From the IMG/VR virus record IMGVR_UViG_3300021964_000016: DNA of 64,000 nt. The stretch is one strand, 5' to 3'. Each line of letters starts with the position of its first letter. Positions within the stretch are counted from its first letter, which is position 1. The notes below the pieces were generated by a model that saw nothing but the letters and a program-made list of their open reading frames with translations, made no database searches and was not told where the DNA came from. Origin of the DNA: a virus. Positions 27,903 to 63,900 of the stretch are shown here, one piece after another. The position numbers and the translations under genes were made by a program.

Positions 27903-28526
27903 CATTTTAGTTACAAATTCTACGTTTGGAGGTGTTTGTATTTTTGAGTTCGGATGCTTGTGGTACAGGAAAAATTTAATGTGCTTGAACTCGTTAAAGA
28001 TATTTGCCCAGATAGGACGCCAAATGTCGAGCAGGCGAAGGTTGTTTCTGCCAGTTCGATCACTGCTCAAGACGGTATCAGTATAAGACCTCATGTTGTG
28101 GTCAAAGATAGAGTCAAACCCAAACATATGAATCTCGTCAGGTTTGTGTCTAGTAGAAACGTAATGTGTCGCCATGTGCCCGCAATTAAAGTTTGTTGCG
28201 CCTTGATTGCCCTTTCCGGCATAACTAGGGACGTGCGTATAGAACTCTCTTATCTGCGCTGACTTCATCATATAAAAACTAGGACGAGAATCCATCCACG
28301 CTTTAGGACGATTACCGCAAACCCAATAGTATGCGTCAAGGTTTATAGAACCTTCGGTCAATGCTGCCATCATTTTAAAGTCGACAATACAAGTCGCGTA
28401 CACATTTTGTACTTCAAACGGAGGTTGGTTGCAAATTATAAGTTTGCCTTCTCTCTTGTATCTAACGGACTCTGGCATCATTTGTGCCATGTCGCCATTG
28501 CCTAAAATATAAACTTTCTTAGTCAT
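27900..28526 (-). CDS. Nucleotide-sugar-transferase-like protein (GT29/GT42/MptE-like Rossmann fold)
   Basis: VYILGNG...ICN...NCGHMA...IHMFGFD pattern. Confidence 0.5.
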   Translation of the reverse strand: MTKKVYILGNGDMAQMMPESVRYKREGKLIICNQPPFEVQNVYATCIVDFKMMAALTEGSINLDAYYWVCGNRPKAWMDSRPSFYMMKSAQIREFYTHVPSYAGKGNQGATNFNCGHMATHYVSTRHKPDEIHMFGFDSIFDHNMRSYTDTVLSSDRTGRNNLRLLDIWRPIWANIFNEFKHIKFFLYHKHPNSKIQTPPNVEFVTKM

Positions 28527-29187
28527 GATTCAATTGTCTACGAATTTCTTCTTTACCTTTCTGTCCCGTCCAGTGTTTTATAATTTGCTTAGACGGAACC
28601 CTCTCTTGTAGAATATCCAATCGCAAAACATTAAAGCGATGCGGTGCTTCTGAAATATGTATAACGCGGTTCATGGCGTCCTGATTCAACAACCAATACA
28701 ATGCTTCTTGATCTCCTCTGTGGATGCCTTCTTTTTTCACCTCATTAAACCAGTGTTCTAGGATAATAGGTCTCCCTTCAAACGCAACCACGCCAGTGTT
28801 GTACCACGGACCACAATTTCCCTGTGGTGTCCAAGGAGACCCATTGGCAGTCCAAGGATGATCTATCACAGCAGTAAGTTTATTATGCTCAACATAGTTA
28901 AAGATACCTGAAGGGTCTGCCATGATCTCGCAGTCAGTATCAACCCAACAGTATTTTCCTTGGAACCAATGCTTCATCTTCCACATCGTTTCTACTTTGG
29001 AAAACCAACCGTTTGACTGAACGCCAACCACAAAATTACAATTTTCCTTTGCAAACTTCTTACCTTCTGGCGAAAGTCCAAAGTCTGCGATAACTAGTTC
29101 GTCGTCGCAATGTTTGTGAAAGTTTTTGGTGAACCATGGTAATTGCCATTCTGTGTTTTTATCACAACCAGTTACAAAGTAATTCAT
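28519..29187 (-). CDS. GT-A glycosyltransferase (GT8/GT77-like)
   Basis: WVDTDCEI (DxD), YNTGVV, GDQEAL and IKHWTG. Confidence 0.8.
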   Translation of the reverse strand: MNYFVTGCDKNTEWQLPWFTKNFHKHCDDELVIADFGLSPEGKKFAKENCNFVVGVQSNGWFSKVETMWKMKHWFQGKYCWVDTDCEIMADPSGIFNYVEHNKLTAVIDHPWTANGSPWTPQGNCGPWYNTGVVAFEGRPIILEHWFNEVKKEGIHRGDQEALYWLLNQDAMNRVIHISEAPHRFNVLRLDILQERVPSKQIIKHWTGQKGKEEIRRQLNHD

Positions 29188-29831
29188 ATCAATTCATATG
29201 CCTCGCTGTAGTTGTGTTTTGCTTGACAACCCAGTTCTTTTTGTATGGTAGAAAATGAGTCGCGTGCCTCTACCGGCCAAGGATAGTATTCTTCTATAAA
29301 GTCAAAGTTGTTGTTGTTTATGAATATGTCAGTCGGCGCAGCGGCAACCTTCGCCTTTTCAATTAATTTTTCTGCTGCTTTTGGCGTCACTGCATATGCG
29401 TGCGCACCTGGAAGATATTGCTTTGATATGAGTTTATTTTTGCCTAGTGTGCTGGGTGCTATCCATCTACCATAAGAAGGACGCCCAAAAGACAATACCC
29501 CATCAAATTGAACATTAGGAATCTGGTCTACAAAATATGCATCATGTTCTAGAACAAGAAGAGTTTCTTTATCTTCTACTGATTTTTTCCAAAGTCTATA
29601 ATGAGAAGTGAAAGCGGCAATACAGTTGTCAAAGCGAGAATACTCTTCAACAAACCCTCTGGTTCCTATTCCTTCTTTTGAGAGGAATTCTCCAGGGTTA
29701 TCCTCTGGTGTAGTTGCTTCGAACTTTTCTACCTCAAATCCAACCCTACCAGCAGAACGAATACAACGCTCTGCTGCCTGTAAGGATTGCTCTATAGAAC
29801 TAATTGTGATCACATAACCTTTCATTATCAA
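29184..29831 (-). CDS. Glycosyltransferase family 25
   Basis: YVITI, AAFTSHYRLWKK, LVLEHDA, GAHAYAVTPKAAEKL and PTD. Confidence 0.85.
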   Translation of the reverse strand: MIMKGYVITISSIEQSLQAAERCIRSAGRVGFEVEKFEATTPEDNPGEFLSKEGIGTRGFVEEYSRFDNCIAAFTSHYRLWKKSVEDKETLLVLEHDAYFVDQIPNVQFDGVLSFGRPSYGRWIAPSTLGKNKLISKQYLPGAHAYAVTPKAAEKLIEKAKVAAAPTDIFINNNNFDFIEEYYPWPVEARDSFSTIQKELGCQAKHNYSEAYELI

Positions 29832-30550
29832 ATTCCTGTGGTTGTCGATACTCCTGATTGCACTACGGTGTAGTATGGATAGACAACCTTTAGATCAGTT
29901 GGAAATAGTTGACGACACATAATAGCGTCGTTTGGCCACATTCCAACTCTCTCCACCTCTTCCAAAAGTTTCTTGGCAAAATAAGGTTTAATGATGTATG
30001 CGCTGTTTCCAGCGATTCCCATCGGTAGAGGTGGGTCAGTCGGTTCATCGATGACGGGTACTCGTTGAATTCCCTCCCCGTACTTCTCGATTAAACTATG
30101 GAACAATCGTCCCTTGCGCGTATTACCTCGCGGGTCATTCAACCCGACTGCGCCCCATTTGTCGGAGAGATCCTCAACAGAGAATTCCCTCACGAACCTT
30201 GCATCGTGCTCAAGAACAAGAATTGGTCCTTCTTGTTCAGCACATAACTTCCATAATCGATAGTGACTTAATGCGCAAGCAACTACTCGATCTTGTGCTT
30301 TTGCTGGATAGTATTTCTTATACAACCCAGTCGTTAAATCTAATCCGTCTTGGTTAGGAGAACTTGGCCATGTCCAAGGAACCTGTTTGCCAAATACTTC
30401 CCCTGTATGATTATATATATTTTTCGGTTGTGTCGCTTCAAAGAACTCAACAGCGATATTCGCGCAATGTTCTTTCACAGATTCAGCGGCAACCTCTGCT
30501 CTACTCACAGAAGAATCATTGTCGCTCATTGTGATGATATATGCTCTCAT
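29828..30550 (-). CDS. Glycosyltransferase family 25
   Basis: AYIIT, ACALSHYRLWK, LVLEHDA, GNSAYIIKP and PND. Confidence 0.85.
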   Translation of the reverse strand: MRAYIITMSDNDSSVSRAEVAAESVKEHCANIAVEFFEATQPKNIYNHTGEVFGKQVPWTWPSSPNQDGLDLTTGLYKKYYPAKAQDRVVACALSHYRLWKLCAEQEGPILVLEHDARFVREFSVEDLSDKWGAVGLNDPRGNTRKGRLFHSLIEKYGEGIQRVPVIDEPTDPPLPMGIAGNSAYIIKPYFAKKLLEEVERVGMWPNDAIMCRQLFPTDLKVVYPYYTVVQSGVSTTTGI

Positions 30551-31110
30551 TTTTGCCCTATGAATACGTGATCTTTCCAACGAGCAGAGCGTTCAACTCC
30601 AGGAGATATCCACTGAGCATCCGGACTTTGTTCCCATTCTTTACCATCATCAATCCAATCAGCAATCACCTTTAAGTCGCACTCTTTTGCAATTGCTTTA
30701 AACGAGTCTCTATAAAATCGCCAACAGTCTGGGTTGTCGTGAGTGGGTCCACTAGAAGGTGCGATAATCACCATGTAATGCTCTGGTTTGAGAACTCGAG
30801 TCAATTCTGCTGCTGCCCTAAATGGATTGTAGATATGCTCAAATGTTTGCCCCGATACAATAAAGTCTATCGAATTGTCTTCAAAAGGTAACTCATACGG
30901 TCCAGGCATTTTGTGAGTAACATTACCACCCTCGTTTATATCTGCGATGTAATAGTTTTCGCAAACATCTTCGAATATTGGTCGATAAGTGCGGTCTTGT
31001 CCAGGTTTTATATTTCTACCGCCAAGGTCTAGTATCGTCAACCCACTACCGAGTCGAGAACCTAAAAGGTCTCTCGCCCTCTTCATATTTTCTCTAGAAG
31101 AAGGGTGCAC
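30547..31110 (-). CDS. Class I SAM-dependent methyltransferase (Methyltransf_11)
   Basis: ILDLGG, LPFEDNSIDFIVSGQTFEH, RVLKP and DCWRF. Confidence 0.88.
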   Translation of the reverse strand: MHPSSRENMKRARDLLGSRLGSGLTILDLGGRNIKPGQDRTYRPIFEDVCENYYIADINEGGNVTHKMPGPYELPFEDNSIDFIVSGQTFEHIYNPFRAAAELTRVLKPEHYMVIIAPSSGPTHDNPDCWRFYRDSFKAIAKECDLKVIADWIDDGKEWEQSPDAQWISPGVERSARWKDHVFIGQK

Positions 31111-31715
31111 TATAGAACCTCTATACTGAATTGTGTTGTTGCACCTTCCTGAATTATTTTCAAATTATACTTCTTCACAAATTCGTCAACAGCAGCAGTT
31201 ACACCTGCCTTGCCGTGTTTTTGAAATGGCCACTGATAGTCGTCGCCTAGAATCAGTCCGCCTGATTTAACAACTCTAAAAGAGTTTTCTAAGTCGCGCA
31301 GGCAACCTTCATATGAATGATCTCCGTCAACGTAGATCCAATCTAGAGAGTTTTCTTCTCGTTGGTCGAACCACTCGTCTGAAGACATTCGGTGTATATG
31401 TACGTTAGATAGTTCTTTAAACCTCTTTACGACTCCTCTATAGACCGAATCGTATTTTTGCTGAAACTGCTCTTCAGTATTCCCGCCACAAACACTAGAA
31501 TACCGTTGCAAATAGTTTTCATAAGATCCATGTTCCGTACTTTCTTTGTATGGTTCTATGCTCCAAGAATCTACAAGGTGAAGTTCTGCTGGGTTTTTAT
31601 TTGCAAAGTTTATAGAAGTGTTTCCCATCCACACCCCGATCTCTGCACCAACGGTTCCCTCTTTCACAAGATAGAGAATATCTTTTGAATCTCTGTTTGT
31701 AGTAGATCCCATCAT
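31110..31715 (-). CDS. Class I SAM-dependent methyltransferase (Methyltransf_24)
   Basis: GAEIGVWMG, LVDSW, LDWIYVDGDHSYEG, GGLILGDDY and GVTAAVDEF. Confidence 0.88.
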   Translation of the reverse strand: MMGSTTNRDSKDILYLVKEGTVGAEIGVWMGNTSINFANKNPAELHLVDSWSIEPYKESTEHGSYENYLQRYSSVCGGNTEEQFQQKYDSVYRGVVKRFKELSNVHIHRMSSDEWFDQREENSLDWIYVDGDHSYEGCLRDLENSFRVVKSGGLILGDDYQWPFQKHGKAGVTAAVDEFVKKYNLKIIQEGATTQFSIEVL

Positions 31716-31717
31716 AA

Positions 31718-32410
31718 CTATTTTCTCCAATAGTTCTTTTGTGCGCCAGTATCAAAGTCATACCCAAAGAAATCGATATCTTCTTTGTACCAGTCTGCCA
31801 CGATCTGAATTGTTTTGTCGGTGTAAATATCTCGGTAGGTGCCTTTATTCAAATCGGTGACGTTACGTGCTCGAGACATTTCTGGAATATCGAAGTATGC
31901 ACAAAGATCTTCGTTGAGATTTTCAAATCTCATCATGTCACATTTAAGATTGCCACTAGCATCGCAAACGTGATCGACAGCAGGAAACCAACCACGTATG
32001 GCGCGGTGCCAATAATAATCCTTTCCGCCCCACTCAAATCGTTCCTCGAGGAAAGACTCGAATGAGTCGATTCGGTGCTTACCAATTGGTTCTTTCTTTT
32101 CAACCTCAATGACTTTCTTTGCAAAGAAGTAACGAGATACAACTCTGTCCCAGGGATTGCGTGCCACGGCGAATGCTTGATATAAGTTTCTGACTGCTGG
32201 TTTGATATCTCTCCATCTCGCGTGTTCATTACCATGATGATCTCCACTTTTCCTCATCGCTTTATGAAGTTCTTTTGTGTATTGCTCTGACTTATGATTA
32301 TTTGGAGTTGCGACAACCAGATAAGGAGCAAGTTGAGGACTCTTGCGTATTGTCATTCCCGCACACTTGGGGATATGAATGAATAATCTTTTCTGATTCT
32401 CGAATACCAT
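31718..32410 (-). CDS. Sulfotransferase (Sulfotransfer_2 family)
   Basis: LFIHIPKCAGMTI (5'-PSB), ARNPWDRVVSRY (3'-PB), RFENL and YKEDIDFFGYDF. Confidence 0.88.
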   Translation of the reverse strand: MVFENQKRLFIHIPKCAGMTIRKSPQLAPYLVVATPNNHKSEQYTKELHKAMRKSGDHHGNEHARWRDIKPAVRNLYQAFAVARNPWDRVVSRYFFAKKVIEVEKKEPIGKHRIDSFESFLEERFEWGGKDYYWHRAIRGWFPAVDHVCDASGNLKCDMMRFENLNEDLCAYFDIPEMSRARNVTDLNKGTYRDIYTDKTIQIVADWYKEDIDFFGYDFDTGAQKNYWRK

Positions 32411-33198
32411 TACGCAATGTCCTTCATCAATGCTTCGACGTTTTCCCCACTATTTGGCAACTTGTCTTTCAAGAAGAAATGAACGAAATTTGCCTCAGGG
32501 ATATATTCGTCCTTTACACCTTTATATAGTGCGTTCCATTTCCAGTCCATATCTTTGATATTCAGACCTTCTTTTTTCACCCACCAATTTAAAAGTGTTT
32601 GGTCGGTAGACCATTTCCAGTTTCCCATACCATCAATAAATTTTTGAAACTCGGGTCGCCCTAAAAATTGTCTCGCGGTTTGTCCTTTGAAATAAGGAAC
32701 GATAGACTTATTCATAATCATCATTCCCATATTATAAAATTTGGCACCCCAGTCTTGCCAGTCCCAGTCAACATTACCGAGACTAGCATACTGCATATTG
32801 GAGTAGTTCTTTATCTTCATGGCGTATGCACCAGAGATTGGCATGTCTCGTTCGACGCATGCACCAAAGTCATGTTCTGTGCCAAAGTCTTCAAAAATAT
32901 TCGGTGCTTCCGAACGAACATAGATGTCGGCATCTATGATTGCAATTTGATCATAACCTTTCGCAAAATAATCAAATGCGTTTTCTTTTTCATATATTGG
33001 CAAAAATCCTCCGTGCTTTTCGTACGACTCTACGGAGCGATTAGTTACAAAGATATCTGGTTTGATTCTTAAGATTGGAGTTTTCTGTACGACATGATCA
33101 ATGCCGTACTTTTCGCAATAAGCGGCAACAGATTCTATGCAATGCTTATAGAGTTGAGAAGGTTTCCCAACAGATACTTGATAAATTAAACGTTTCAT
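32410..33198 (-). CDS. GT-A glycosyltransferase (GT8/GT34-like)
   Basis: IIDADIY, PNIF, YNMGMM, DQTLLN, KWNAL and FVHF. Confidence 0.82.
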   Translation of the reverse strand: MKRLIYQVSVGKPSQLYKHCIESVAAYCEKYGIDHVVQKTPILRIKPDIFVTNRSVESYEKHGGFLPIYEKENAFDYFAKGYDQIAIIDADIYVRSEAPNIFEDFGTEHDFGACVERDMPISGAYAMKIKNYSNMQYASLGNVDWDWQDWGAKFYNMGMMIMNKSIVPYFKGQTARQFLGRPEFQKFIDGMGNWKWSTDQTLLNWWVKKEGLNIKDMDWKWNALYKGVKDEYIPEANFVHFFLKDKLPNSGENVEALMKDIA

Positions 33199-33213
33199 AA
33201 TGATACCAAAGGG

Positions 33214-34767
33214 TTATGATGTAAAAACCTTTACCCCATATTTTCGTTCAAACTGAGCAGCGTGTTCAACAGTATTAACCATCGGCATGCGTCGAATATT
33301 CAAAGAAGTGTTTAACAACATAGGCACACCAGTTCTTTCATAATAGCATTCAATTATTTTCCGAAAAACCGATTTCGAATCTTTTGGCACTAATTGTACG
33401 CGACCAGTACCATCGACATGAGTAACAGAAGAATACTGGTGTTTTGCCTTAGCAGCATATTGCATCCATCGATTCATTGGTCCTTCGAAATAATCTGCTG
33501 CATGTTCTTCTAAAATAGCAGGAGCGAAAGGTCGATATTTCTGCCTACGTTTTACCATGTTAACTGTATCTTTAACATCGAATCTAACATCTGCAATAAG
33601 TGATCGGTTTCCATATGCACGATAACTAAACTCTGCTGGACCGTTTGCGACTCCGCAATATCGCTCTTTGAGGAGATGATCAACAACCATTTCTGGGTCT
33701 AAGTCTCCTTCGATACAGTGACCAAGATAAGGGTGTTCCCAATTAATTCTATCCTTGCCAGTATCTCTCATATAAGAAAAAGCAGCTGCACCGAGACTAG
33801 CACCTCCATCTCCAGGATTCAAATCTACCCACATATCGTCAAATAGTTTGCTCACCTCATTATTTGTGACAATATTCTGTGCAACTCCGCCGGAATAGCA
33901 AAGTTTGCTTCCGTACTTTCTTGCCTTTTTCATAAACTCTAAAATAACGAGGGTTGTACATGCTTGAAGAGATGCAGCTGCATCCTCTACAGATTTACAT
34001 TCTTTCATAAGCATCTGTACGATTTTTCGCAAGTACATTAACTTTAAGTCATAGAAATGTTTCCAGTTCACGTAACTTCCTTCTTCCCTTTTTTGTATTG
34101 CTTCTTCAATCAACCATTCGGGAATAGAACTAAACATCTCATAAGTTTTTTCAGTATGAGTAGGTTCGCCATAACTCGACAATCCCATGATCACATATTC
34201 ATCTTCGTTTGCGGTCAAACCGAGTCCGCAACCTTCTGTAAAGGCAGCATAAAGATATCCGATAGATTTAGGGAATGTTATCTCTTCAATAATATTAAAA
34301 TTATGATCAAGAATTGCACCAGAACGATGCTCCCCAATACCATCAATTGTTACAATAACGCAATCTTCTTTATCGAAAGATTTTGGTCTTGTGGCAAAAG
34401 CAGCATATGCGTGCGAAATATGGTGCCCAGTAGGTTTTGCGTTTATTTTTTGAGTATACATCGAAGGATGTATGTTCTGTATAGGGCAATCCAATTTGAA
34501 AATATCAGGAAACTTTTTCCGAGTTAATGCAACTTCACCTCCACGAAGTTCTTCTCTCGCCTCCCAATCGTCATTCATTGTAACGATTAGGTTTTCTCCT
34601 TTATTCGGGTGATACAATAAGTCCCACAAACCAGAGGGGATTCTAGAATCGTGCTTCACTTGAGTGAATCTTTCTGTCTGACTCGCAAAGACAATATTGC
34701 CTTGGTCATCAATCAACGTCATGCCAGCATCGTGGAGTTGTGCTCCACTAATACCCAAATATTTCAT
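33214..34767 (-). CDS. Carbamoyltransferase (NodU/CmcH family)
   Basis: HDAG, ERFTQVKH, HHISHA, DGIGE, GGVAQN, PGDGG, GNRSLIAD, RPFAP, HVDGTGRVQ and LLNTSLN. Confidence 0.93.
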   Translation of the reverse strand: MKYLGISGAQLHDAGMTLIDDQGNIVFASQTERFTQVKHDSRIPSGLWDLLYHPNKGENLIVTMNDDWEAREELRGGEVALTRKKFPDIFKLDCPIQNIHPSMYTQKINAKPTGHHISHAYAAFATRPKSFDKEDCVIVTIDGIGEHRSGAILDHNFNIIEEITFPKSIGYLYAAFTEGCGLGLTANEDEYVIMGLSSYGEPTHTEKTYEMFSSIPEWLIEEAIQKREEGSYVNWKHFYDLKLMYLRKIVQMLMKECKSVEDAAASLQACTTLVILEFMKKARKYGSKLCYSGGVAQNIVTNNEVSKLFDDMWVDLNPGDGGASLGAAAFSYMRDTGKDRINWEHPYLGHCIEGDLDPEMVVDHLLKERYCGVANGPAEFSYRAYGNRSLIADVRFDVKDTVNMVKRRQKYRPFAPAILEEHAADYFEGPMNRWMQYAAKAKHQYSSVTHVDGTGRVQLVPKDSKSVFRKIIECYYERTGVPMLLNTSLNIRRMPMVNTVEHAAQFERKYGVKVFTS

Positions 34768-34785
34768 AACGAACCTATGAATTAA

Positions 34786-35238
34786 TTAATAAGGTACTTC
34801 TTCCATTCTAGACATAAGTCGCTCAGCACGATTAGTCACTTGGCGATACCAAAGAGAATCACGACCTTCGGTTGCAGCTTTTTTCCAATCATGGTCAAGA
34901 ATAGCAGCATTGAAGTTTTTAAATTTTGAAAGTCGAGTACGTCCCATATTGAACATCATATTAACCAAAATCTGCTGGACCTCATCAGGTAAGTTTCCAA
35001 ATTCCCCTTTGCCGTATAGAGCGTCACACTCTGCGATGGAGAGGTCGAGGTCTGCTTCGAAACACTCTCGGACTCTTTCTTCGGATACTGGCGTGCCCAC
35101 ATCAAGACCGTTCTCGGCGTCGGTTTCCAATACCAAATGCCCAACTCCGAATGTTGGATATCCAAGGTGGTCTTTGTAAATTTCATAGACAACACCTTCG
35201 TCGATTTTTAGTTGTTCGAATACTGCTTCTCTGTTCAT
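34786..35238 (-). CDS. Endolysin, T4 lysozyme-like (GH24)
   Basis: LKIDEG..YEIYKDHLGYPTFGVGH, NMMFNMG and SLWYRQVTNRAERL. Confidence 0.92.
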   Translation of the reverse strand: MNREAVFEQLKIDEGVVYEIYKDHLGYPTFGVGHLVLETDAENGLDVGTPVSEERVRECFEADLDLSIAECDALYGKGEFGNLPDEVQQILVNMMFNMGRTRLSKFKNFNAAILDHDWKKAATEGRDSLWYRQVTNRAERLMSRMEEVPY

Positions 35239-35239
35239 T

Positions 35240-35947
35240 TTAATTTCCCTTTTTGAACATTTCTTTAGTCATTATATAGTCGCGAACGAAATCCGAACGA
35301 ATAATATCTTTCCAACCAAACTCAATTATAGAGAAATTTCTCATAATTTCTATAATACTTATAAACTCTCTCAGTCCGTTCTTATCGCCCTGCTTCACAA
35401 AGTCTGATTGATAGTAGTCCCCAGAAAAAATAATTCTAGAGTCCAGTCCAACACGAGTAATTACTGAGTCTAATTCATGAAAGGTCAAGTTCTGCATTTC
35501 ATCAACGATGATGATTGCGTTGTCGAAAGTTGTTCCTCGAATAAAAGAAGTAGAATGAAACTCTACGCTTCTCTGTTCTACAAGTTGCTGATATGCGCCA
35601 CTAGTATCAAACAAGTCATCGCATATAGAAATATAAGGTGTAATAAAGGGAAGCAACTTTTCTTCTGCTGTTCCTGGTAAAAACCCGACTTCTCTGGTAG
35701 GAACAACTGAACGAATTATGTGCACAGTTTCCCATGGGGTATTTTTATCAAGGACATCTTGCAGTGCTAAGTACAACGCAGTAAAAGTCTTACCCGTACC
35801 CGCACTGCCACTGAGAACTAGATGATCTCCATCTTTCCAAGATTCTCTAGCAACTTTTTGAGTTTCTGTTAAAGGGTCGAATACACCAAGGTCGTCTATA
35901 CGCAACTTTCGTTGAGACTCAAACTTCTGACGTTTTGTTTGGGTCAT
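35240..35947 (-). CDS. phoH: PhoH-like ATPase
   Basis: GSAGTGKT, GFLPG, FIRGTTF, IVDEMQN, GDYYQSD and DIIRS. Confidence 0.95.
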   Translation of the reverse strand: MTQTKRQKFESQRKLRIDDLGVFDPLTETQKVARESWKDGDHLVLSGSAGTGKTFTALYLALQDVLDKNTPWETVHIIRSVVPTREVGFLPGTAEEKLLPFITPYISICDDLFDTSGAYQQLVEQRSVEFHSTSFIRGTTFDNAIIIVDEMQNLTFHELDSVITRVGLDSRIIFSGDYYQSDFVKQGDKNGLREFISIIEIMRNFSIIEFGWKDIIRSDFVRDYIMTKEMFKKGN

Positions 35948-36183
35948 TATGTTTTTATAGTATTACCACGACGGCCAGTGTTCTTCTTCATATTCTTAAG
36001 AAGATCTTTCCAACCATCTGAAGTTTTAGATAAAGTGCCGTTAACATGAGTCACTAATGCTGCACTGCTCTTATGGACCTGTACCCATTCTCCTGCATCT
36101 ACTTTCTCTTTCAGAGCAGTATAAGTACACATGACTTCTTTCTCTTCTCCAGTAGAAGTGTCTCTTACGTCGTAAAAAGGCAT
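35947..36183 (-). CDS. Small FmdB-like protein lacking most Cys ligands
   Basis: MPFYDVRDTSTGEEKE...SDGWKDLLKNMKK; usual position upstream of phoH. Confidence 0.6.
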   Translation of the reverse strand: MPFYDVRDTSTGEEKEVMCTYTALKEKVDAGEWVQVHKSSAALVTHVNGTLSKTSDGWKDLLKNMKKNTGRRGNTIKT

Positions 36184-36981: not shown

Positions 36982-37413
36982 TTATATAGGATTATCAACA
37001 TTACTACTTAGGTGTTTTCTAGAGATACGACAATTTATAATTCCATTGTAGTATTCGTCATTTAAAAGGACTTCTCTATCGAACTGCTCTTTTGCTTCGT
37101 AGTACGAGCAGTCACCTTTGGTTTTACACAACCTGATTATTTCTCGTTTGAAAGCATCGGCACCTTTCTGTTCTAATAAAAGTTTTACCGCTTCAGAACT
37201 ACCGAAATAACCTTTCCAGTCTGATTCTACTCGCATATGTTTCCTACGCTTTCGACTTTTAGTCACTGGCAGTGTTTTCTTTTTGTGAAAAAATTTTTTG
37301 CCGACATACTTCATACCTGTTTCTATTTCAGTTATGACGTACACAAACCCTGTCCATTCTTGGAGCGATTCGTATTCTGGGTCAAAAACTTTTCCTTCGT
37401 AGTGCCAAGTCAT
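36982..37413 (-). CDS. GIY-YIG family endonuclease
   Basis: GFVYVITE..TGMKYVGKK, SDWKGYFGSS, FKREII and YYNG. Confidence 0.8.
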   Translation of the reverse strand: MTWHYEGKVFDPEYESLQEWTGFVYVITEIETGMKYVGKKFFHKKKTLPVTKSRKRRKHMRVESDWKGYFGSSEAVKLLLEQKGADAFKREIIRLCKTKGDCSYYEAKEQFDREVLLNDEYYNGIINCRISRKHLSSNVDNPI

Positions 37414-37535
37414 GCTTCTACTGGAGACGCGCACATAGGACAATACGCTGGTTCAGCATCACAATTTTCATCTAAAATTATTTCACAGTGAGATTCGCAG
37501 ACGTCGCAAATAACGTCAAACACATACTCTTCCAT
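37410..37535 (-). CDS. Small zinc-ribbon protein, 41 aa (not in ORF track)
   Basis: MEEYVFDVICDVCESHCEIILDENCDAEPAYCPMCASPVEA; two CxxC motifs; ATGA overlap. Confidence 0.75.
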   Translation of the reverse strand: MEEYVFDVICDVCESHCEIILDENCDAEPAYCPMCASPVEA

Positions 37536-37537
37536 TA

Positions 37538-37969
37538 TTAATCTCTCGCTATCTTTCCTGTTTCGTACAGATATTCTCTATTAGTTATATGCTCTTGAGC
37601 AATGTCGTCTTTTGATTGCCCGAAATACCTAACCCCGAGTTTGTTTTCAATCATAATTTCGTTCACGGGGCGGTATGCGTCTTTTGAAGCATCGTACACG
37701 ATAAACTCTCCCAAGATTCGACCATACTTTCCCTTTCCGTCTTTCCTAGTTCGAAGAACCGCTTCTTCACCCAAAGAGTTTACCAGATAATCTTTTGCGA
37801 GCAACCCACACTTTTTCTCTTCGAGGTTTCTCGTTCTAGACTCTGGAGTATCGATGCCATAGAGTCTAACCCTTTGTTTCTTTAACCAAACGCCAAACCC
37901 GAGATCGATATCAACATCAACCGTGTCTCCGTCGACAACCTTTATTACTTTGCAATTATATTCGAACAT
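37538..37969 (-). CDS. Thermonuclease (SNase-like)
   Basis: KVVDGDTVD, RVRLYGIDTPES and GKYGRILG. Confidence 0.9.
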   Translation of the reverse strand: MFEYNCKVIKVVDGDTVDVDIDLGFGVWLKKQRVRLYGIDTPESRTRNLEEKKCGLLAKDYLVNSLGEEAVLRTRKDGKGKYGRILGEFIVYDASKDAYRPVNEIMIENKLGVRYFGQSKDDIAQEHITNREYLYETGKIARD

Positions 37970-38208
37970 TACAGCACCTTTTTAAGATGATAACCCACAG
38001 GTTGTAAAAGTTTGAATGTATTTTTACAACCTTCTGTGTCAATAAACACAAAGTGGGTTTCGGATATTTTTTTAATTTTTTTAACCTTAAAGGTTTGTGG
38101 GTTTCCCTTGGATACTTTGGTTCCGTCTGGTTGTTCTACTGTTTCTCCTGGGAAAAATATAGTCAACTCCCACTCGTCATGTAACCATTTTTTTATAGAC
38201 TGCTTCAT
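37969..38208 (-). CDS. Hypothetical protein
   Basis: 79 aa, TAATG-coupled to the nuclease gene. Confidence 0.65.
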   Translation of the reverse strand: MKQSIKKWLHDEWELTIFFPGETVEQPDGTKVSKGNPQTFKVKKIKKISETHFVFIDTEGCKNTFKLLQPVGYHLKKVL

Positions 38209-38211
38209 ATC

Positions 38212-38283
38212 TTACCGTACACTAAAATACATGGTCACTTCGAACCCAGCACGGATAACGATTGCTTCTGGTTTGTTCCACAT
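38212..38283 (-). CDS. pqqA: Pyrroloquinoline quinone precursor peptide PqqA (23 aa; not in ORF track)
   Basis: MWNKPEAIVIRAGFEVTMYFSVR matches the PqqA pattern MWxKP...RxGFEVTMY with the Glu-x3-Tyr core; purine-rich SD region AAAGGGGAAAGGT. Confidence 0.9.
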   Translation of the reverse strand: MWNKPEAIVIRAGFEVTMYFSVR

Positions 38284-38294
38284 ACCTTTCCCCT

Positions 38295-38804
38295 TTATGC
38301 GATAATACTTATTGATGTTCTTTCGTCAGAAAGAACATCGACCTTGTGAGAAACTCCTTTTGGCATAAAAAATATATGCCCAGGTTCTACTATTTGTTCT
38401 CTTATTTCCCCTCGGTGCCCTTCTGCCCCCGAAATCTCAAACCAAGTCCATTTTGTGACACCAAGTATGTTAAATGCCCAAACCTCATAATTGTCAACGT
38501 GCCAACCAAGACTAGAGTTTGCCCCTTCGTGAAGTCCAATAAACATAGAAATGTTTATACATTTATGGTACTCCATCATCTCCTTAAAAACTTTTGGGAA
38601 CGTCTTTTTATCTTTATCGCACCAACCATAATGCCTATAGACTGTACTGGAGTCTACTCGACTTTTCATTTCTGAGTGCCATTTACCAGGAGCTTCTGAC
38701 ATGATATAGTCAGTATCGGGAAGAGCATCAAACCATTTTTTGGGCATAGTCTGGTAAGAAGTCCCCCATTGTGCGTTTGGTTTATCATAATATTTAGGTT
38801 CCAA
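38295..38804 (-). CDS. JmjC/cupin-like 2OG oxygenase
   Basis: LGWHVD.YEVWAFNILGVTKW...VEPGHIFFMPKGVSHKV...RTSIS. Confidence 0.8.
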   Translation of the reverse strand: MEPKYYDKPNAQWGTSYQTMPKKWFDALPDTDYIMSEAPGKWHSEMKSRVDSSTVYRHYGWCDKDKKTFPKVFKEMMEYHKCINISMFIGLHEGANSSLGWHVDNYEVWAFNILGVTKWTWFEISGAEGHRGEIREQIVEPGHIFFMPKGVSHKVDVLSDERTSISIIA

Positions 38805-38805
38805 A

Positions 38806-39783
38806 TTATGCCGCTCCCCAAACCTCTTTCCAGTCTCCAGTTAATGCCCCGCGAGCATAATCTGTAGCACGGTTCTCAAAAAAGTTTGTGTGTGTTGGCG
38901 CGTTAATCATTTCTTCGACCCAAAGTAAAGGGTTCTTCTTCACTTTAAAGATACCCTTCATGCCCAAAGAGATAAGGCGACGATCTGCGATGTACCGAAT
39001 ATATGCCTTAACTTCTTCTTGAGTAAGTCCTTCCATTGGACCCATGGCAAACGCCAGATCGATAAACTTGTCCTCGAGTTCTACCATCTTTTCTGCAATA
39101 GAGTAGATCGTTGATTTCAACTGATCGTTCCAAATCTCGATATTCTCTTCTATGTAGGTTCGGAATAGTTTGATCATAGACTCGGCGTGCATAGTCTCGT
39201 CGACGATAGACCAAGTTACAATCTGTCCCATGCCCTTCATCTTACCATGACGCGGAAAGTTGAGTAGCATGATGAAAGAACTGAACAGTTGCATACCTTC
39301 GGTGAAGGCAGAGAACGCGGCGATATTAGCAGCAACAGATTCTTTGGTGCCGTTATTTGCGGAAAGGTTTAGAAAATACTCGTGCTTCTCTCGCATTGCC
39401 TCGTACTCGAGGAACTCGTTGTATGTAGACTCAGGCATACCCAAGGTCTCTATCAAATGCGAATAAGCAGCAACGTGGAGTGCTTCTCTCGCGGCGAATC
39501 CCATAAGCATCATACGAACTTCTGGTTGTGGGAAATAAGGAAGATAGTTCGAAACATATCCACCCGCAACATCGATATCACCCTGAGTAAAAAATCGAAA
39601 AATATTGGTCAAAAATGCTCGCTCTTCAATAGTGAGTTTTCTTTGCCAATCCTTTACATCTTCTGCCATTGGAACTTCCGTGTGTAACCAATGAGACTGC
39701 TCATGTTTCAACCAAGCATCATATGCCCATGGATAGTTGAAAGGTTTGAAGTGGTCCCTGTTGTCCGTAATTGATAGTTGCAT
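38806..39783 (-). CDS. nrdB: Ribonucleotide reductase class Ia beta subunit
   Basis: FFTQGD, REALH..AYS, EGMQLFSSF, DETMH and NFFENRATDY. Confidence 0.97.
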   Translation of the reverse strand: MQLSITDNRDHFKPFNYPWAYDAWLKHEQSHWLHTEVPMAEDVKDWQRKLTIEERAFLTNIFRFFTQGDIDVAGGYVSNYLPYFPQPEVRMMLMGFAAREALHVAAYSHLIETLGMPESTYNEFLEYEAMREKHEYFLNLSANNGTKESVAANIAAFSAFTEGMQLFSSFIMLLNFPRHGKMKGMGQIVTWSIVDETMHAESMIKLFRTYIEENIEIWNDQLKSTIYSIAEKMVELEDKFIDLAFAMGPMEGLTQEEVKAYIRYIADRRLISLGMKGIFKVKKNPLLWVEEMINAPTHTNFFENRATDYARGALTGDWKEVWGAA

Positions 39784-39786
39784 GCA

Positions 39787-40341
39787 TTATCCTTTGTTTT
39801 CTGTTTTGTTGAACCAAGTTACTAGTACGATTCTATGACCATCATAAACTTTGCTCACTCCATGAGTCAAGTTTGGACCATAAACTAAACTTTCACCATC
39901 ATCAACTTTCACCACATCCATTATAATTTGCTGACCATAGGGGGGAGCATCTTGTTCGCGAGAATGCCGCGCCACCTGATTTCCCATTGGTCTGCTCTTT
40001 AATTTATACTCTGCTCTAACTAAAGATTCTCCACCAACCAACTCCTTTGTTTTTAGTAAAGTAACAATTGTCAAATCCGAGTTGTTGTCTTCGTGCATTC
40101 TTGTAAAAGAATCTTTTTCATATTTTAAAAAATATGCCCCCTTATCTCCTGGCATCTTTGAATACTTTTTCAAAGTATTATAGAAACCGTATTGTAGTGG
40201 GGTTGGAACATCTCTTCTTTCAACATCAAACAAGTTGTAGTTTTGATGCCAAAAAACAGGAGAGAGACTTTCGTATATTTCTAGTGCTTCTTTTATTTCA
40301 TCACCGGAAAGAATTCTTTCCTTAATATAACCACTCACCAA
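39787..40341 (-). CDS. 2OG-Fe(II) oxygenase between nrdA and nrdB
   Basis: YFLKY...HED...LTIVTLL...GGE...HGVSKVYDGHRIVLVTWF. Confidence 0.82.
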   Translation of the reverse strand: MVSGYIKERILSGDEIKEALEIYESLSPVFWHQNYNLFDVERRDVPTPLQYGFYNTLKKYSKMPGDKGAYFLKYEKDSFTRMHEDNNSDLTIVTLLKTKELVGGESLVRAEYKLKSRPMGNQVARHSREQDAPPYGQQIIMDVVKVDDGESLVYGPNLTHGVSKVYDGHRIVLVTWFNKTENKG

Positions 40342-42144
40342 TTATCCCTCGCAAGCGATACACTCTTCATTATTAACGATAGCAACCATATCAATTTCTT
40401 TGATTGCTTCTCTTTCGATCTTCTTAGAAACGCGATCTGCCTTTCCAAGTTTTTCAGAGCGACAATAGTACAAAGTCTTCAACCCTTTCTTCCACGCCAA
40501 GAAATGGACAGCATGCAAGTAAACGATATTCGCGTCTGGTCTAAAGAACAGATTCAAAGACTGCGCTTGATCGATAAACTGTTGCCGATCAGCAGCGTGC
40601 TCAATAACCCAACGTTGATCAATTTCCATAGAGGTCTTGAATACGTCTTTTTCTTCTTGGGTCAGAAACCGAAGATGCTGAGCAGAACCATCGTTAGCAA
40701 TAATGCTTGACCAAATTTCATCATAGTCTTGCTTTGTTTCGCCCGACTGAATTTTTGCTTTTATGAGTTGATCCAAATATCGGTTTTTATTTAAATGTGA
40801 ACCAGACAATGTATCCTGACGGTATGCGTTTGCTCGCCAAGGTTCTATAGAAGGAGAAGTATTGCCCATAATGATAGAGGAACTAGCATTAGGCGCAACA
40901 GCCATAACATGAGAAAATCTCTTTCCAGTTCCTTCTGCGTCTGGTGCTTCTCCTCGTTCTTTACCGATCTCGAGGTTTGCTTCATCGAGTTTCCTCCGGA
41001 TGAGAGAAAATATCCTGTTGTTAGTAACCTTTGCCATGGCACAATCCCATGGTAGGTTTTTCTTTTGTAGATAAGCATGAAACCCAAGGGCACCGATACC
41101 GATCGAACGCTCTCGCATTGCGGAGAACTTAGCACGAGCAACTGTATCTGGCGCGTTGTCAATAAAAAATTGCAACACGTTGTCCAACATCTCTGCCATG
41201 TCTTTCAAAAACAATTCGTTCTTGCTCCAAGCATCATAGTGCTCGAGGTTTACTGAAGAAAGACAACAAACAGCAGTTCGTTCTTCATTAGTTGGCAGGA
41301 TAATTTCTGAACAAAGATTAGACTGATGAATCTTTAATCCCAGTTCTTTTTGAAAAGCAGGCATCATACGATTGCTGGTATCGATGAAGTGCAGGTATGG
41401 TTCGCCTGTCTCCATGCGTAGTTCCAGAATCTTCTGCCACAGAGACTTTGCTGAAATAGTATCGCGGATTTCGCCTGAGTGCGGATCAATTAGATTCCAA
41501 CCATCATCTGCGTCGGCGTCTTGCATACAACGTTCAATCAACTCCATGAACCGATCGCTGATATTGATACCATGATGCAAGTTTAAACAACGGCGATTTT
41601 GGTCGCCTGTTGGTTTGCGCATTTCAAGAAACTCAATCACGTCTGGGTGAGAGATATCGAGGTATGCTGCATATGAACCACGCCGAGTCTTACCCTGACG
41701 ATAAGCAAGGGAAGAAGCGTCATAGGTTTTAAGGTGCGGGATTACACCAGTGGACTTATCGTCAGAAGAACGAATACCAAAACCGATCCCTACACCACCA
41801 CCCATCATAGACAACCAGTTAGTCTCGGATAGGTTGCTCACCAATCCTTCAGCTGTATCCTCGATGAAGTTGAGGAAGCAAGAGATTGGCATACCCTTTC
41901 CCGTGCGCCCATACGCGAGGATAGGGGTAGAGTAGGATAACCAGTGTTTAGAAGAGTATTCGTAGAGACGTTGAGCGTGCTCAGGGTTTGAAGAGAATTT
42001 TTGAGAGACAAAAGCGAATCGATGTTGAGGCGACTCTTCGTCGTCTCGCATATATGATTCTTTAAGTCTTTGGATTCCTAATTTGTCGAAGAGTTCATCA
42101 CGAGAGAGATCGATTTCTATACCAAGATATTGCTGCTTTGCCAC
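40342..42144 (-). CDS. nrdA: Ribonucleotide reductase class Ia alpha subunit (no ATP cone)
   Basis: STP, ISCF, GGGVG, SNLCSEI, VCCLSS, APNASSS, KTLYY and terminal CIACEG. Confidence 0.97.
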   Translation of the reverse strand: MAKQQYLGIEIDLSRDELFDKLGIQRLKESYMRDDEESPQHRFAFVSQKFSSNPEHAQRLYEYSSKHWLSYSTPILAYGRTGKGMPISCFLNFIEDTAEGLVSNLSETNWLSMMGGGVGIGFGIRSSDDKSTGVIPHLKTYDASSLAYRQGKTRRGSYAAYLDISHPDVIEFLEMRKPTGDQNRRCLNLHHGINISDRFMELIERCMQDADADDGWNLIDPHSGEIRDTISAKSLWQKILELRMETGEPYLHFIDTSNRMMPAFQKELGLKIHQSNLCSEIILPTNEERTAVCCLSSVNLEHYDAWSKNELFLKDMAEMLDNVLQFFIDNAPDTVARAKFSAMRERSIGIGALGFHAYLQKKNLPWDCAMAKVTNNRIFSLIRRKLDEANLEIGKERGEAPDAEGTGKRFSHVMAVAPNASSSIIMGNTSPSIEPWRANAYRQDTLSGSHLNKNRYLDQLIKAKIQSGETKQDYDEIWSSIIANDGSAQHLRFLTQEEKDVFKTSMEIDQRWVIEHAADRQQFIDQAQSLNLFFRPDANIVYLHAVHFLAWKKGLKTLYYCRSEKLGKADRVSKKIEREAIKEIDMVAIVNNEECIACEG

Positions 42145-61420: not shown

Positions 61421-62404
61421 TTATACAGTAGAGGCAATGATACGATCGTTTAGAGAAAACTCTGTACCGAGCATATGCTTTGTCCGAGCACTGGGGTCAT
61501 TTGACCACACCAACACTTCGGGATTATCATAGAGAAAGTCGCAGTCTTTACAATATTCAATATCGTCAAAACGCTCCTCCTCGTGTGCTTTTCGCAACCC
61601 CTGATACTTTTCGCCCCAGAAGATTTCTTCAAACGTCTGATCTTCAAAGTGGCCAAGAACAGACTTTGCTTCGTTTGGCGGACCAAGTGTTTGACAACAA
61701 GGAGTGACTGCCCCCAACTTACCATTACCGCCAGCACGAACTGTTAACTCTGGACCAAATGGTCTCCCGCAGGTTTTGCGATTAATAGGAATCCTAGCAT
61801 TCTTTCCAATTTCATAATTGCCTGACCAGTTATGCATCTTCCAGATATATGCTTTGGTGTGCGTATGTCGAATGAAATTGTCTTTGTACTCGTTTATCTC
61901 AAAGTTTGTTTGAGAGTTATTTGTAATCAAATGATAGGAACTAACTTCACAGCTCGACCCAGTTCGACGAATATAATCCTGTAGATCAATGACGTTAAAA
62001 CGAACAGAAAAGAAATTGTCAACGTCCATCCATTCAAGATAAGAGATTGGATCATAACCAATGACGCTAACTCGAATGAAATCTATTCCTGCGTCAACGA
62101 CTCGCTTCATGTAGTCGCCATGAAGGAAATACCCATTGGTGTACATGTATGCTTTGCAACCACGTTTCTTGACTGCCTCGATATATTTGTCGAGATCTTT
62201 AGCGAGCGTTGGTTCGCCCGAACCCTCAAGATTAATTTGAGGAGTCCCGTACTTTGGAATGATCTGATCAAGAATATCCTCAAATTGAGACAGAGGCATC
62301 TTGCGCGTCCATTCCTTGCCTCTTCCTGGAATAGTCTGCGGACACATCTGGCAGGTGTAATTACACCCACCGATTACTTCCATGACTACACGTTCAAGTT
62401 TCAT
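61421..62404 (-). CDS. Radical SAM protein with SPASM/twitch domain
   Basis: CNYTCQMC, GSGEPTL and YTNG; C-terminal CGRPF...TPCC...CKDC. Confidence 0.9.
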   Translation of the reverse strand: MKLERVVMEVIGGCNYTCQMCPQTIPGRGKEWTRKMPLSQFEDILDQIIPKYGTPQINLEGSGEPTLAKDLDKYIEAVKKRGCKAYMYTNGYFLHGDYMKRVVDAGIDFIRVSVIGYDPISYLEWMDVDNFFSVRFNVIDLQDYIRRTGSSCEVSSYHLITNNSQTNFEINEYKDNFIRHTHTKAYIWKMHNWSGNYEIGKNARIPINRKTCGRPFGPELTVRAGGNGKLGAVTPCCQTLGPPNEAKSVLGHFEDQTFEEIFWGEKYQGLRKAHEEERFDDIEYCKDCDFLYDNPEVLVWSNDPSARTKHMLGTEFSLNDRIIASTV

Positions 62405-63038
62405 TTATTTTTGTTGGATCATTATCTGAATGATCGTCCTTGCCGTGATATATCAACCATCCTGTCACGATGTACTTGTATTCCTTCAGGTCTGGTGCTG
62501 ATCTGTGTGGGTGCGTATAACATGCTGGCCAGATCACCATCTTTCCTGCTTCTGGTTTTACAGAGATATTTTGATTCGCAAAATTTGTTTTACCACCTCT
62601 CTCTACAGTGTTTAGATAGATCATCCAAACACCCCAGCGTCTGCTCGTATGCGAGTCTGCTCCTTGTTCATAGTGCCACTGACAAAACCCTCCTTCTGGA
62701 GGAGTTCTTTGTATTTTGCACTCTAGAAATTCTAGATCTCTCCATCTAGGAACACCGCATTTAGTATAATGCTTACGCATATCAATCAGCGCATCATGTA
62801 ATCTATTATGAATATCCTGTTGATACTTTCTAAGAGAAGAAAACCGATGCATGACCAGACTTACATCATTCCTCTTTTGATTGTCTCTGATGCTTATACC
62901 CTCAACGTCTTTTTCAGGAGTCCCTCCGCCTTCGATCGCCTTTTCTATTTTGTTGTCAATAATTTTGATCAGGTTGGCACACCACTCTTCTGATACGGCA
63001 TTTTCCCAGACGCAAATGTTATCCGTTAAGAGTTCCAT
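62394..63038 (-). CDS. 2OG-Fe(II) oxygenase
   Basis: KIQRT...WHYE...WMIYLN...GGKT...VIWPACYTHPHR...KYIVTGW. Confidence 0.88.
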   Translation of the reverse strand: MELLTDNICVWENAVSEEWCANLIKIIDNKIEKAIEGGGTPEKDVEGISIRDNQKRNDVSLVMHRFSSLRKYQQDIHNRLHDALIDMRKHYTKCGVPRWRDLEFLECKIQRTPPEGGFCQWHYEQGADSHTSRRWGVWMIYLNTVERGGKTNFANQNISVKPEAGKMVIWPACYTHPHRSAPDLKEYKYIVTGWLIYHGKDDHSDNDPTKINET

Positions 63039-63900
63039 ACCATTCCATTCTTTTTGTGTGGTATAATTTTGTGTAGTTTATCTCTTTCTTCATCTTCTCT
63101 GGAGATTCTGCCATTGAGTTTAGAAATCCATAGAACTGCCCTGGAAGCACAAATGCTGCTGAACCTGGATTAGTGTGTCTGATGCAATGATAGTTGTTGC
63201 CTGTTATACAGACAAATAACTTGCCAAAGTTTCTAGGAATTACATGCCACATACCATCATATCCAACACAAAAAGAACAATCCTTTATCTCTGAGTATGC
63301 TTTTCTGTAGGAGTCCCTATAGGTGAGTTCGACTATCTCATAATCAGGAAACATCAATGGAAGATCATTGTGAATAAACAGTCCCCAATCAATATTAACG
63401 ATTTTCATTTCTTGAGGAGATTCTCTGTTTTTCTCCCAACTCCACACAACAATTTTCTTCTTTGTTTCTCCAGACTCTTTAAATTCCCATTCTGCACTCC
63501 CAGAACTAATGCTAAAAGGAACCAAGCGATCTTTATGATGTTTGCCTATATGCAGAATGTCTTTTGCGCGATCACTCGGAACAATCCATCGAATCGGATT
63601 AATTTTTCTACGCAAACTGTGATTATGATGCGAATTATGATACTCAAAGAGATCTGATTCCCAGACATGAACTAGGTTCACTCTTTCAGAACCCCTTAAA
63701 TCTTGAAGAATCGTATGAGCACGTTCCCCTAGTTTCTCCGTGTCTTTTGGATGATAGAAAAAATCCTGTGATTCTTTCCAGTGATATTCAAGTTCAACAT
63801 CCACGTCATAGTGTTTTGCCCAAGCACAGGCACAGTTGAGCGAACTAAGCATATCGCCTGCACCTGGACCTGCCTTTGTCATGAGAATGTCTGTGGACAT
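63019..63900 (-). CDS. Glycosyltransferase-like (GT-B) protein
   Basis: GAGDML at the N-terminus; IKDCSFCVGYDGMWHVI resembles the GT9-type C-terminal motif. Confidence 0.45.
   Translation of the reverse strand: MSTDILMTKAGPGAGDMLSSLNCACAWAKHYDVDVELEYHWKESQDFFYHPKDTEKLGERAHTILQDLRGSERVNLVHVWESDLFEYHNSHHNHSLRRKINPIRWIVPSDRAKDILHIGKHHKDRLVPFSISSGSAEWEFKESGETKKKIVVWSWEKNRESPQEMKIVNIDWGLFIHNDLPLMFPDYEIVELTYRDSYRKAYSEIKDCSFCVGYDGMWHVIPRNFGKLFVCITGNNYHCIRHTNPGSAAFVLPGQFYGFLNSMAESPEKMKKEINYTKLYHTKRMEWYGTLNG

Follow-up and report, generated by a model that had tools for sequence, protein, structure and literature searches.

The DNA analysed here, a viral stretch of 64 kb that we call the window, carries a genuine stand-alone pqqA gene of a T4-like myophage. 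This gene of 23 codons encodes a precursor peptide of the cofactor PQQ, and we consider it likely, from comparative data, to be a minimal auxiliary metabolic gene that would feed precursor to the PqqD, PqqE, PqqB and PqqC proteins of the host. As a kind, phage pqqA was already published in 2020 and is widespread. What is new here is a T4-like lineage with a divergent peptide.

In terms of reading frame, pqqA runs on the minus strand from an ATG at 38283 to a TAA at 38214-38212 and has 23 residues. The Shine-Dalgarno sequence AGGGGA (38294-38289) is found 5 nt ahead of the ATG, with its GGGG core 6 nt ahead. The first-pass annotation of this DNA had claimed a 23-codon frame at 38212-38283 with a Shine-Dalgarno sequence, exactly filling the gap between a JmjC gene and the next frame. 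Both points are confirmed. The fit is exact because the stop of the JmjC/cupin gene (38295) lies 11 nt upstream and the start of an ORF of 79 aminoacids (38208) follows after 3 nt. The features discussed in this work are collected in Table 1.

Table 1. Coordinates of pqqA, its sequence elements and the other genes discussed, in the numbering of the window.
Feature	Position	Strand	Basis or remark
nrdA	40342-42144	minus	Pfam
2OG-Fe(II) oxygenase	39787-40341	minus	Pfam
nrdB	38806-39783	minus	Pfam
JmjC/cupin protein, 169 aa, upstream neighbour	38295-38804	minus	Pfam JmjC_2, 25.3 bits
Shine-Dalgarno AGGGGA	38289..38294	minus	read directly from sequence
pqqA CDS	38212..38283	minus	23 codons + TAA stop; protein P0001 = MWNKPEAIVIRAGFEVTMYFSVR
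Glu15 codon (glutamate cross-linked by PqqE)	38239..38241	minus	translation; invariant in viral copies
Tyr19 codon (tyrosine cross-linked by PqqE)	38227..38229	minus	translation; invariant in viral copies
79-aa phage protein, downstream neighbour	37969-38208	minus	no Pfam or NCBIfam family
Staphylococcal-type nuclease, SNase	37538-37969	minus	Pfam
SegE-like GIY-YIG endonuclease	36982-37443	minus	Pfam; 0.8 kb downstream of pqqA
Radical-SAM/SPASM protein, 327 aa	61421-62404	minus	Radical_SAM and SPASM domains; 23 kb from pqqA

The peptide passes both curated models of the PqqA family. It scores 24.4 bits against the Pfam model PF08042 (curated cut-off of 21.1) and 31.4 bits against the NCBIfam equivalog TIGR02107 (cut-off of 20), where the alignment covers model positions 1-21 of 21. 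The leader, W2-N3-K4-P5, is of the W-x-K-P type, and the length of 23 residues falls in the PqqA range of about 20-40. Furthermore, Glu15 and Tyr19 are at the canonical positions with the E-x-x-x-Y spacing, and the glutamate and tyrosine of this motif reportedly yield PQQ (Barr et al. 2016, cited in PMC7678222 and PMC9851590). With both models passed and the two residues in place, the PqqA identity proposed at first pass is well supported.

Compared with bacterial PqqA (PF08042 / TIGR02107), the phage copy agrees in length, in its leader (W-x-K-P) and core (E-x-x-x-Y) and in the Arg at position 11, and differs in being encoded by a virus. It is also divergent, with 31 bits against 42-46 for bacterial copies. 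Two positions are unusual, with Val9 in place of the usual Asp or Glu and Ala12 in place of the usual large hydrophobic residue. Given this divergence, recognition by host PqqD is an assumption.

We find it hardly credible that the frame is a chance ORF, or an untranslated spacer that merely resembles PqqA. Its small size and the failure of every gene caller to report it would suit such a reading, but two curated models are passed, and TIGR02107 gave no hit above its cut-off in 14 control genomes. The window holds the codon pattern of the seven-residue core a single time, and none of 100 shuffles produced it. A looser PqqA-like peptide motif has likewise one occurrence across the six frames of the window. 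The proper Shine-Dalgarno sequence and the exact fit between the neighbours also speak against chance.

As for the carrier, the larger ORFs of the window are all on the minus strand and include the T4-type baseplate genes gp6 and gp8, as well as nrdAB. pqqA is a host-type metabolic gene among the phage genes of a bona fide phage genome, as is expected of an auxiliary metabolic gene. Four independent ENA assemblies (ERZ27296340, ERZ27296341, ERZ27296361 and ERZ27296377) contain the same region at 99.8-99.97% identity, on contigs of up to 64 kb and with an identical pqqA. The same arrangement, again with an identical pqqA, is seen in Logan and JGI contigs. Therefore, the gene belongs to the phage and is no assembly chimera. 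In every contig of this phage that we checked, gene annotation left pqqA uncalled.

No DNA near-identical to the window was found in GenBank phages, and no tRNA genes were found in the window. The closest GenBank phage is Phage C48C1 (Kyanoviridae), with a gp6 that is 36% identical and most shared proteins at 30-67%. Methylophilales phage Melnitz is somewhat more distant. pqqA is absent from C48C1, the closest sequenced relative, and in this phage lineage the gene is accessory and dispensable.

A co-directional early/middle block precedes pqqA, formed by nrdA, the 2OG-Fe(II) oxygenase gene and nrdB (38806..42144, minus). The T4-type late promoter motif TATAAATA is absent from the interval 24.7-44.3 kb, and terminator prediction gave nothing on the minus strand downstream of the nrdA 5' end (41592-41607) up to pqqA. 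We infer that pqqA is co-transcribed with these early/middle nucleotide-metabolism genes.

The nrd-pqqA region is hyperplastic and rich in Fe/2OG oxygenases. In C48C1, nrdA and nrdB are adjacent (locus L126, 2214-5208). In the window (38295-40341), by comparison, the 2OG-Fe(II) oxygenase gene is inserted between nrdA and nrdB, and the JmjC/cupin gene, pqqA and the 79-aa ORF come after nrdB.

A variant contig that is 95% identical (JGI 3300008012, locus L347, 1-24) locates an edge in this region. Its homology to the window ends 1 nt upstream of the pqqA ATG (38284). On the other side, pqqA and the 79-aa ORF together have 1 mismatch in 312 nt, and the adjoining nuclease gene differs by 9.3%. The boundary at 38284 looks like the edge of a mosaic cassette. 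Since homology stops 1 nt before the ATG in this variant, a recombination boundary adjoins pqqA, and the gene has no fixed tie to the JmjC gene. The ribosome-binding region ahead of pqqA differs between this contig and the window.

Both immediate neighbours were considered as functional partners and dropped. A link between the JmjC gene and pqqA was set aside for lack of recurrent adjacency, with the variant contig breaking homology between the two genes. No JmjC homologue lies beside the other viral pqqA copies among the loci listed (at least 120), and no IMG/VR relatives were reached through the JmjC protein. A role of the 79-aa ORF as a PqqD-like chaperone was also dropped, as it matches no family and has viral hypothetical proteins as structural neighbours. 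The relatives of this ORF are small viral proteins, and pqqA was found beside none of the three distant relatives examined.

The SegE-like region (36982-37535; loci L349 and L351) varies between near-identical strain contigs. One has a truncated call of 84 aminoacids, and others have an extra ORF of 41 aminoacids between the nuclease and SegE. This variation is consistent with an active mobile element.

Such a setting bears on one competing explanation, in which a real pqqA from the host or from another phage is a neutral passenger, carried along in a hyperplastic region beside a homing endonuclease and of no benefit to the phage. It would agree with the nrdA-nrdB region of C48C1, which is without the 2OG oxygenase, JmjC and pqqA insertions, with the SegE-type GIY-YIG endonuclease 0.8 kb downstream, and with the recombination boundary 1 nt upstream of the ATG in the 95%-identical variant. 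Nevertheless, no bacterial copy seen exceeds 74% identity to the window peptide, so pqqA is no recent pick-up, and its frame and key residues are intact. In addition, viral copies as a class show strong purifying selection and recur in unrelated phages, as detailed below. On this balance, we regard carriage without benefit as unlikely.

We then turn to the companions of the gene. tblastn with Acinetobacter PqqB, PqqC, PqqD and PqqE was run on the window and on 120 viral pqqA loci (among the matches listed). The queries were taken from a mis-binned "phage" record that is in fact a bacterial chromosome. No PqqB, PqqC or PqqD was found in the 64-kb window. PqqB-E were found at 0 of the 120 viral pqqA loci listed, whereas an identical search found them at 35-51 of 120 bacterial pqqA loci (36-51 for PqqB, PqqC and PqqD). 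In 50,697 phage records, the Acinetobacter queries gave no PqqC or PqqD outside mis-binned Acinetobacter contigs. Within the 64-kb window, pqqA has no association with pqqBCDE, which is not disqualifying because orphan pqqA is the rule in Methylophilaceae and in phages.

One apparent phage operon was rejected. The records of "Acinetobacter phage MD-2021a" (CAKLQF020000010.1, locus L002, and CAKLQH020000055.1) are bacterial chromosome, with ppk and pqqBCDE. They contain an unannotated pqqA just upstream of pqqBCDE.

The first-pass annotation had also stated that no pqqB-E is seen in the window. This stands for PqqB, PqqC and PqqD; for PqqE there is a match, the radical-SAM/SPASM protein, that scores far under the PqqE cut-off. 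Against the PqqE model TIGR02109 this protein reaches 27.9 bits, for a cut-off of 381.35, and many other maturase models score higher. No equivalog cut-off is reached. We therefore rejected it as PqqE on this score. Its neighbours, at 62394-63038 and 63019-63900, are a 2OG-Fe(II) oxygenase and an unknown protein of 293 aminoacids.

The protein could still act on the peptide, replacing host PqqE or making a different cross-linked product. Radical_SAM and SPASM domains define the enzyme class of PqqE, and Acinetobacter PqqE aligns with 23% identity over 115 aminoacids. The other observations point away from such a role. The better matches to other maturases come on top of a distance of 23 kb between the two genes. 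In 50,697 phage records, the only homologue is in C48C1 (47% identity), which has no pqqA, and the homologue is absent from pqqA-bearing isolates and from the 120 viral pqqA loci listed. Furthermore, the protein lacks an N-terminal domain for peptide recognition, and the Acinetobacter query detected no PqqD-like protein in the window. We judge a modification of the peptide by this enzyme to be highly improbable. The same low probability applies to the stronger version, in which phage pqqA and the phage radical-SAM/SPASM enzyme would make the first Glu-Tyr cross-link, or another product, without host PqqD and PqqE. If true, the pairing would give the phage a partly autonomous pathway for a ribosomal peptide cofactor.

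Next, pqqA is not limited to this phage. In GenBank phages, tblastn with the window peptide found Methylophilales phages MEP401/402, MEP301, Venkman and four Melnitz isolates, as well as Methylophilaceae phage P19250A. The five lineages tested (MEP402, Venkman, P19250A, MEP301 and Melnitz) have one pqqA each, with 31.6-38.4 bits on TIGR02107. The profile search that had been suggested as a check on the first-pass call thus matches the window ORF and all five Methylophilales phage lineages. In none of the five is pqqA annotated; it lies in an unannotated gap or beneath a hypothetical ORF of the opposite strand. In Melnitz (MZ577097.1, 76100-76195; locus L001, 3961-4056), MelnitzEXVC044M_152 is annotated on the strand opposite the true pqqA. 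The Melnitz gene, preceded by the ribosome-binding site AAGGAGG, reaches 31.6 bits on TIGR02107. The Melnitz paper makes no mention of pqqA.

For uncultured viruses, IMG/VR was scanned with two degenerate codon patterns, one for the core and one for the leader only. The core scan found at least 120 viral contigs, and all 120 listed have complete PqqA ORFs. The leader scan added 80 contigs among the matches listed, which brings both scans to at least about 200 viral contigs. Flanks of ±3 kb around viral pqqA fall into about 10 unrelated contexts (among the matches listed). A clustering link between the window and locus L279 was treated as spurious, because tblastx failed to reproduce it.

Viral pqqA sequences were then compared by the Nei-Gojobori method, on 157 and 106 distinct viral DNA sequences and only at codons not fixed by the search pattern (among the matches listed). 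Among the matches listed, the core codons give a dN/dS of 0.04 and the leader and tail codons one of 0.15, with synonymous sites near saturation. Glu15 and Tyr19 are invariant in 169 distinct viral sequences (among the matches listed). In the leader-defined ORFs listed, where the core was free to vary, 119 of 119 have 23 codons and keep Glu15 and Tyr19, and positions 14, 16 and 18 vary. These values indicate strong purifying selection on viral pqqA as a class. A constrained core with Glu15 and Tyr19 kept is the pattern expected of a true PqqE substrate.

This pattern also bears on the decoy that the first-pass annotation had offered as an alternative. The peptide would titrate host PqqD or PqqE without yielding PQQ, and so shut host PQQ synthesis. 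An orphan leader peptide without enzymes could suit this role, as could the unusual positions 9 and 12 of the window copy. On the contrary, both cross-linking residues are retained in the window copy and in all listed viral copies whose core the search had left free, and a peptide that only binds would not need the constraint seen on the core. Hosts themselves amplify orphan pqqA copies. The decoy is left without support, and we consider it very unlikely.

We return to the preferred reading, a precursor supplied by the phage to the host pathway. The gene would be transcribed together with the early/middle genes of nucleotide metabolism. PqqD, the chaperone of the host, would bind the leader of the phage PqqA, host PqqE would cross-link Glu15 to Tyr19, and a host peptidase, PqqB and PqqC would complete PQQ. 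A pqqA under a phage promoter would keep precursor flowing once host transcription declines. PqqA is consumed in this synthesis, one peptide per PQQ molecule, so that additional precursor made by the phage would maintain or increase the supply of PQQ. Sustained or raised PQQ would in turn serve the periplasmic quinoprotein dehydrogenases, and through them provide respiratory energy during infection.

The copy number of pqqA in possible hosts is in line with a role for supply. In Methylophilaceae, pqqA is present in 201 of 201 sampled genomes, mostly in 2-12 copies, and 3-12 copies versus a single pqqBCDE have been reported (PMC4109929). pqqA is thus the one gene of the pathway that methylotrophs amplify. 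Expression of pqqA and pqqE follows the rate of PQQ synthesis (PMC9851590). Both the Methylophilaceae copy numbers and this expression support the view that precursor dosage matters in hosts. The orphan state of the phage copy is like that of the dispersed orphan pqqA of Methylophilaceae (3-12 copies). Expression during infection and a gain in phage yield are supported indirectly, by the Shine-Dalgarno sequence, the operon packing and the purifying selection on viral copies as a class. On the whole, the proposed auxiliary-gene reading fits all the comparative evidence.

Regarding the host, PqqA of the phage core type occurs in Proteobacteria. The W-N-K-P variant was found in 0 species genomes of the collection, and none combine W-N-K-P with the phage core. 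The best bacterial matches are in Halieaceae/Luminiphilus (OM60/NOR5), with 74% identity over all 23 residues and about 31 bits. The C-terminal GFEVTMYFSVR of Halieaceae PqqA is identical to that of the window peptide, and the Halieaceae gene lies in a canonical pqqABCDE operon. A match is present in just 15 of 201 sampled Halieaceae genomes, and the GC content of the phage is 41%, versus 52-62% at the Halieaceae loci.

A different picture is seen with Methylophilaceae, whose PqqA is 70% identical over residues 1-20, with 24 bits. The leader half of the window peptide is nearer to the types of Methylophilaceae and of Melnitz-group viruses, and the core and tail are of the Halieaceae type. The first-pass claim of a PQQ-producing proteobacterial host holds in general and extends to no single family, with the Halieaceae and Methylophilaceae signals in conflict. 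The host is probably a PQQ-producing member of the Gammaproteobacteria, as defined in GTDB, to which we assign no family.

The SNase (37538-37969, minus) is the window protein most like Melnitz, at 62% identity over 136 residues, compared with about 30-50% for core genes. Its homologue in Melnitz lies 3.7 kb from the Melnitz pqqA. As a sign of a host shared with Melnitz, this likeness (62% over 136 residues) was considered too weak.

Among known systems, the closest in kind comes from Methylophilaceae-phage populations of Lake Baikal, where a viral PqqA was given the same auxiliary-gene reading (Coutinho et al. 2020, Microbiome 8:163, PMC7678222). That gene is likewise a stand-alone precursor gene, read as supporting PQQ-dependent dehydrogenases (PMC7678222). 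The Baikal virus, predicted to infect Methylophilaceae, also had a methanol dehydrogenase. The window phage, in contrast, is a T4-like myophage with pqqA next to nrdAB and a divergent peptide, and no dehydrogenase was found among the window ORFs scanned or in the PqqB-E search. Viral pqqA also appears in a 2026 reservoir study, where it is counted with the genes for phosphate solubilisation (PMC13188868).

The cultured Methylophilales phages are similar to the window phage in having a single orphan pqqA of 23-24 codons that passes TIGR02107. The 8-kb Melnitz locus yielded no pqqB-E, and the records of the cultured Methylophilales phages yielded neither PqqC nor PqqD. Melnitz is also a T4-like (Kyanoviridae) myophage. 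However, peptide identity between these phages and the window PqqA is only 59-74%, the genomic context differs, and the Melnitz core proteins are only about 30-50% identical to those of the window phage. The window phage thus adds a T4-like lineage distinct from Melnitz.

Classical phage auxiliary genes, such as cyanophage psbA and phoH, are host-derived genes that replace a component consumed or turned over in infection, and pqqA is analogous to them. They differ in product, as the classical genes encode enzymes or structural proteins and pqqA encodes a sacrificial precursor of 23 residues that relies wholly on host enzymes. Few plausible auxiliary metabolic genes are as small as pqqA with its 23 codons, and a product that is a sacrificial precursor and not an enzyme is unusual.

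That pqqA recurs in phages unrelated to each other suggests that, when PQQ-dependent bacteria are infected, the supply of PQQ sets a limit on energy metabolism. The core and tail of Halieaceae type hint that this strategy may reach beyond phages of methylotrophs. There is also a lesson for annotation. Gene callers overlook pqqA in essentially every record, cultured reference phages included, so that the influence of viruses on the oxidation of methanol and alcohol is under-counted.

Lastly, a further run of genes lies at about 28500-35950 (minus), between the tail genes and the nrd block. Annotations of a near-identical contig (locus L348) place here PhoH, a lysozyme, a carbamoyltransferase and a sulfotransferase, together with two methyltransferases and two family-25 glycosyltransferases. 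This run of genes may be a module for glycan or virion modification.
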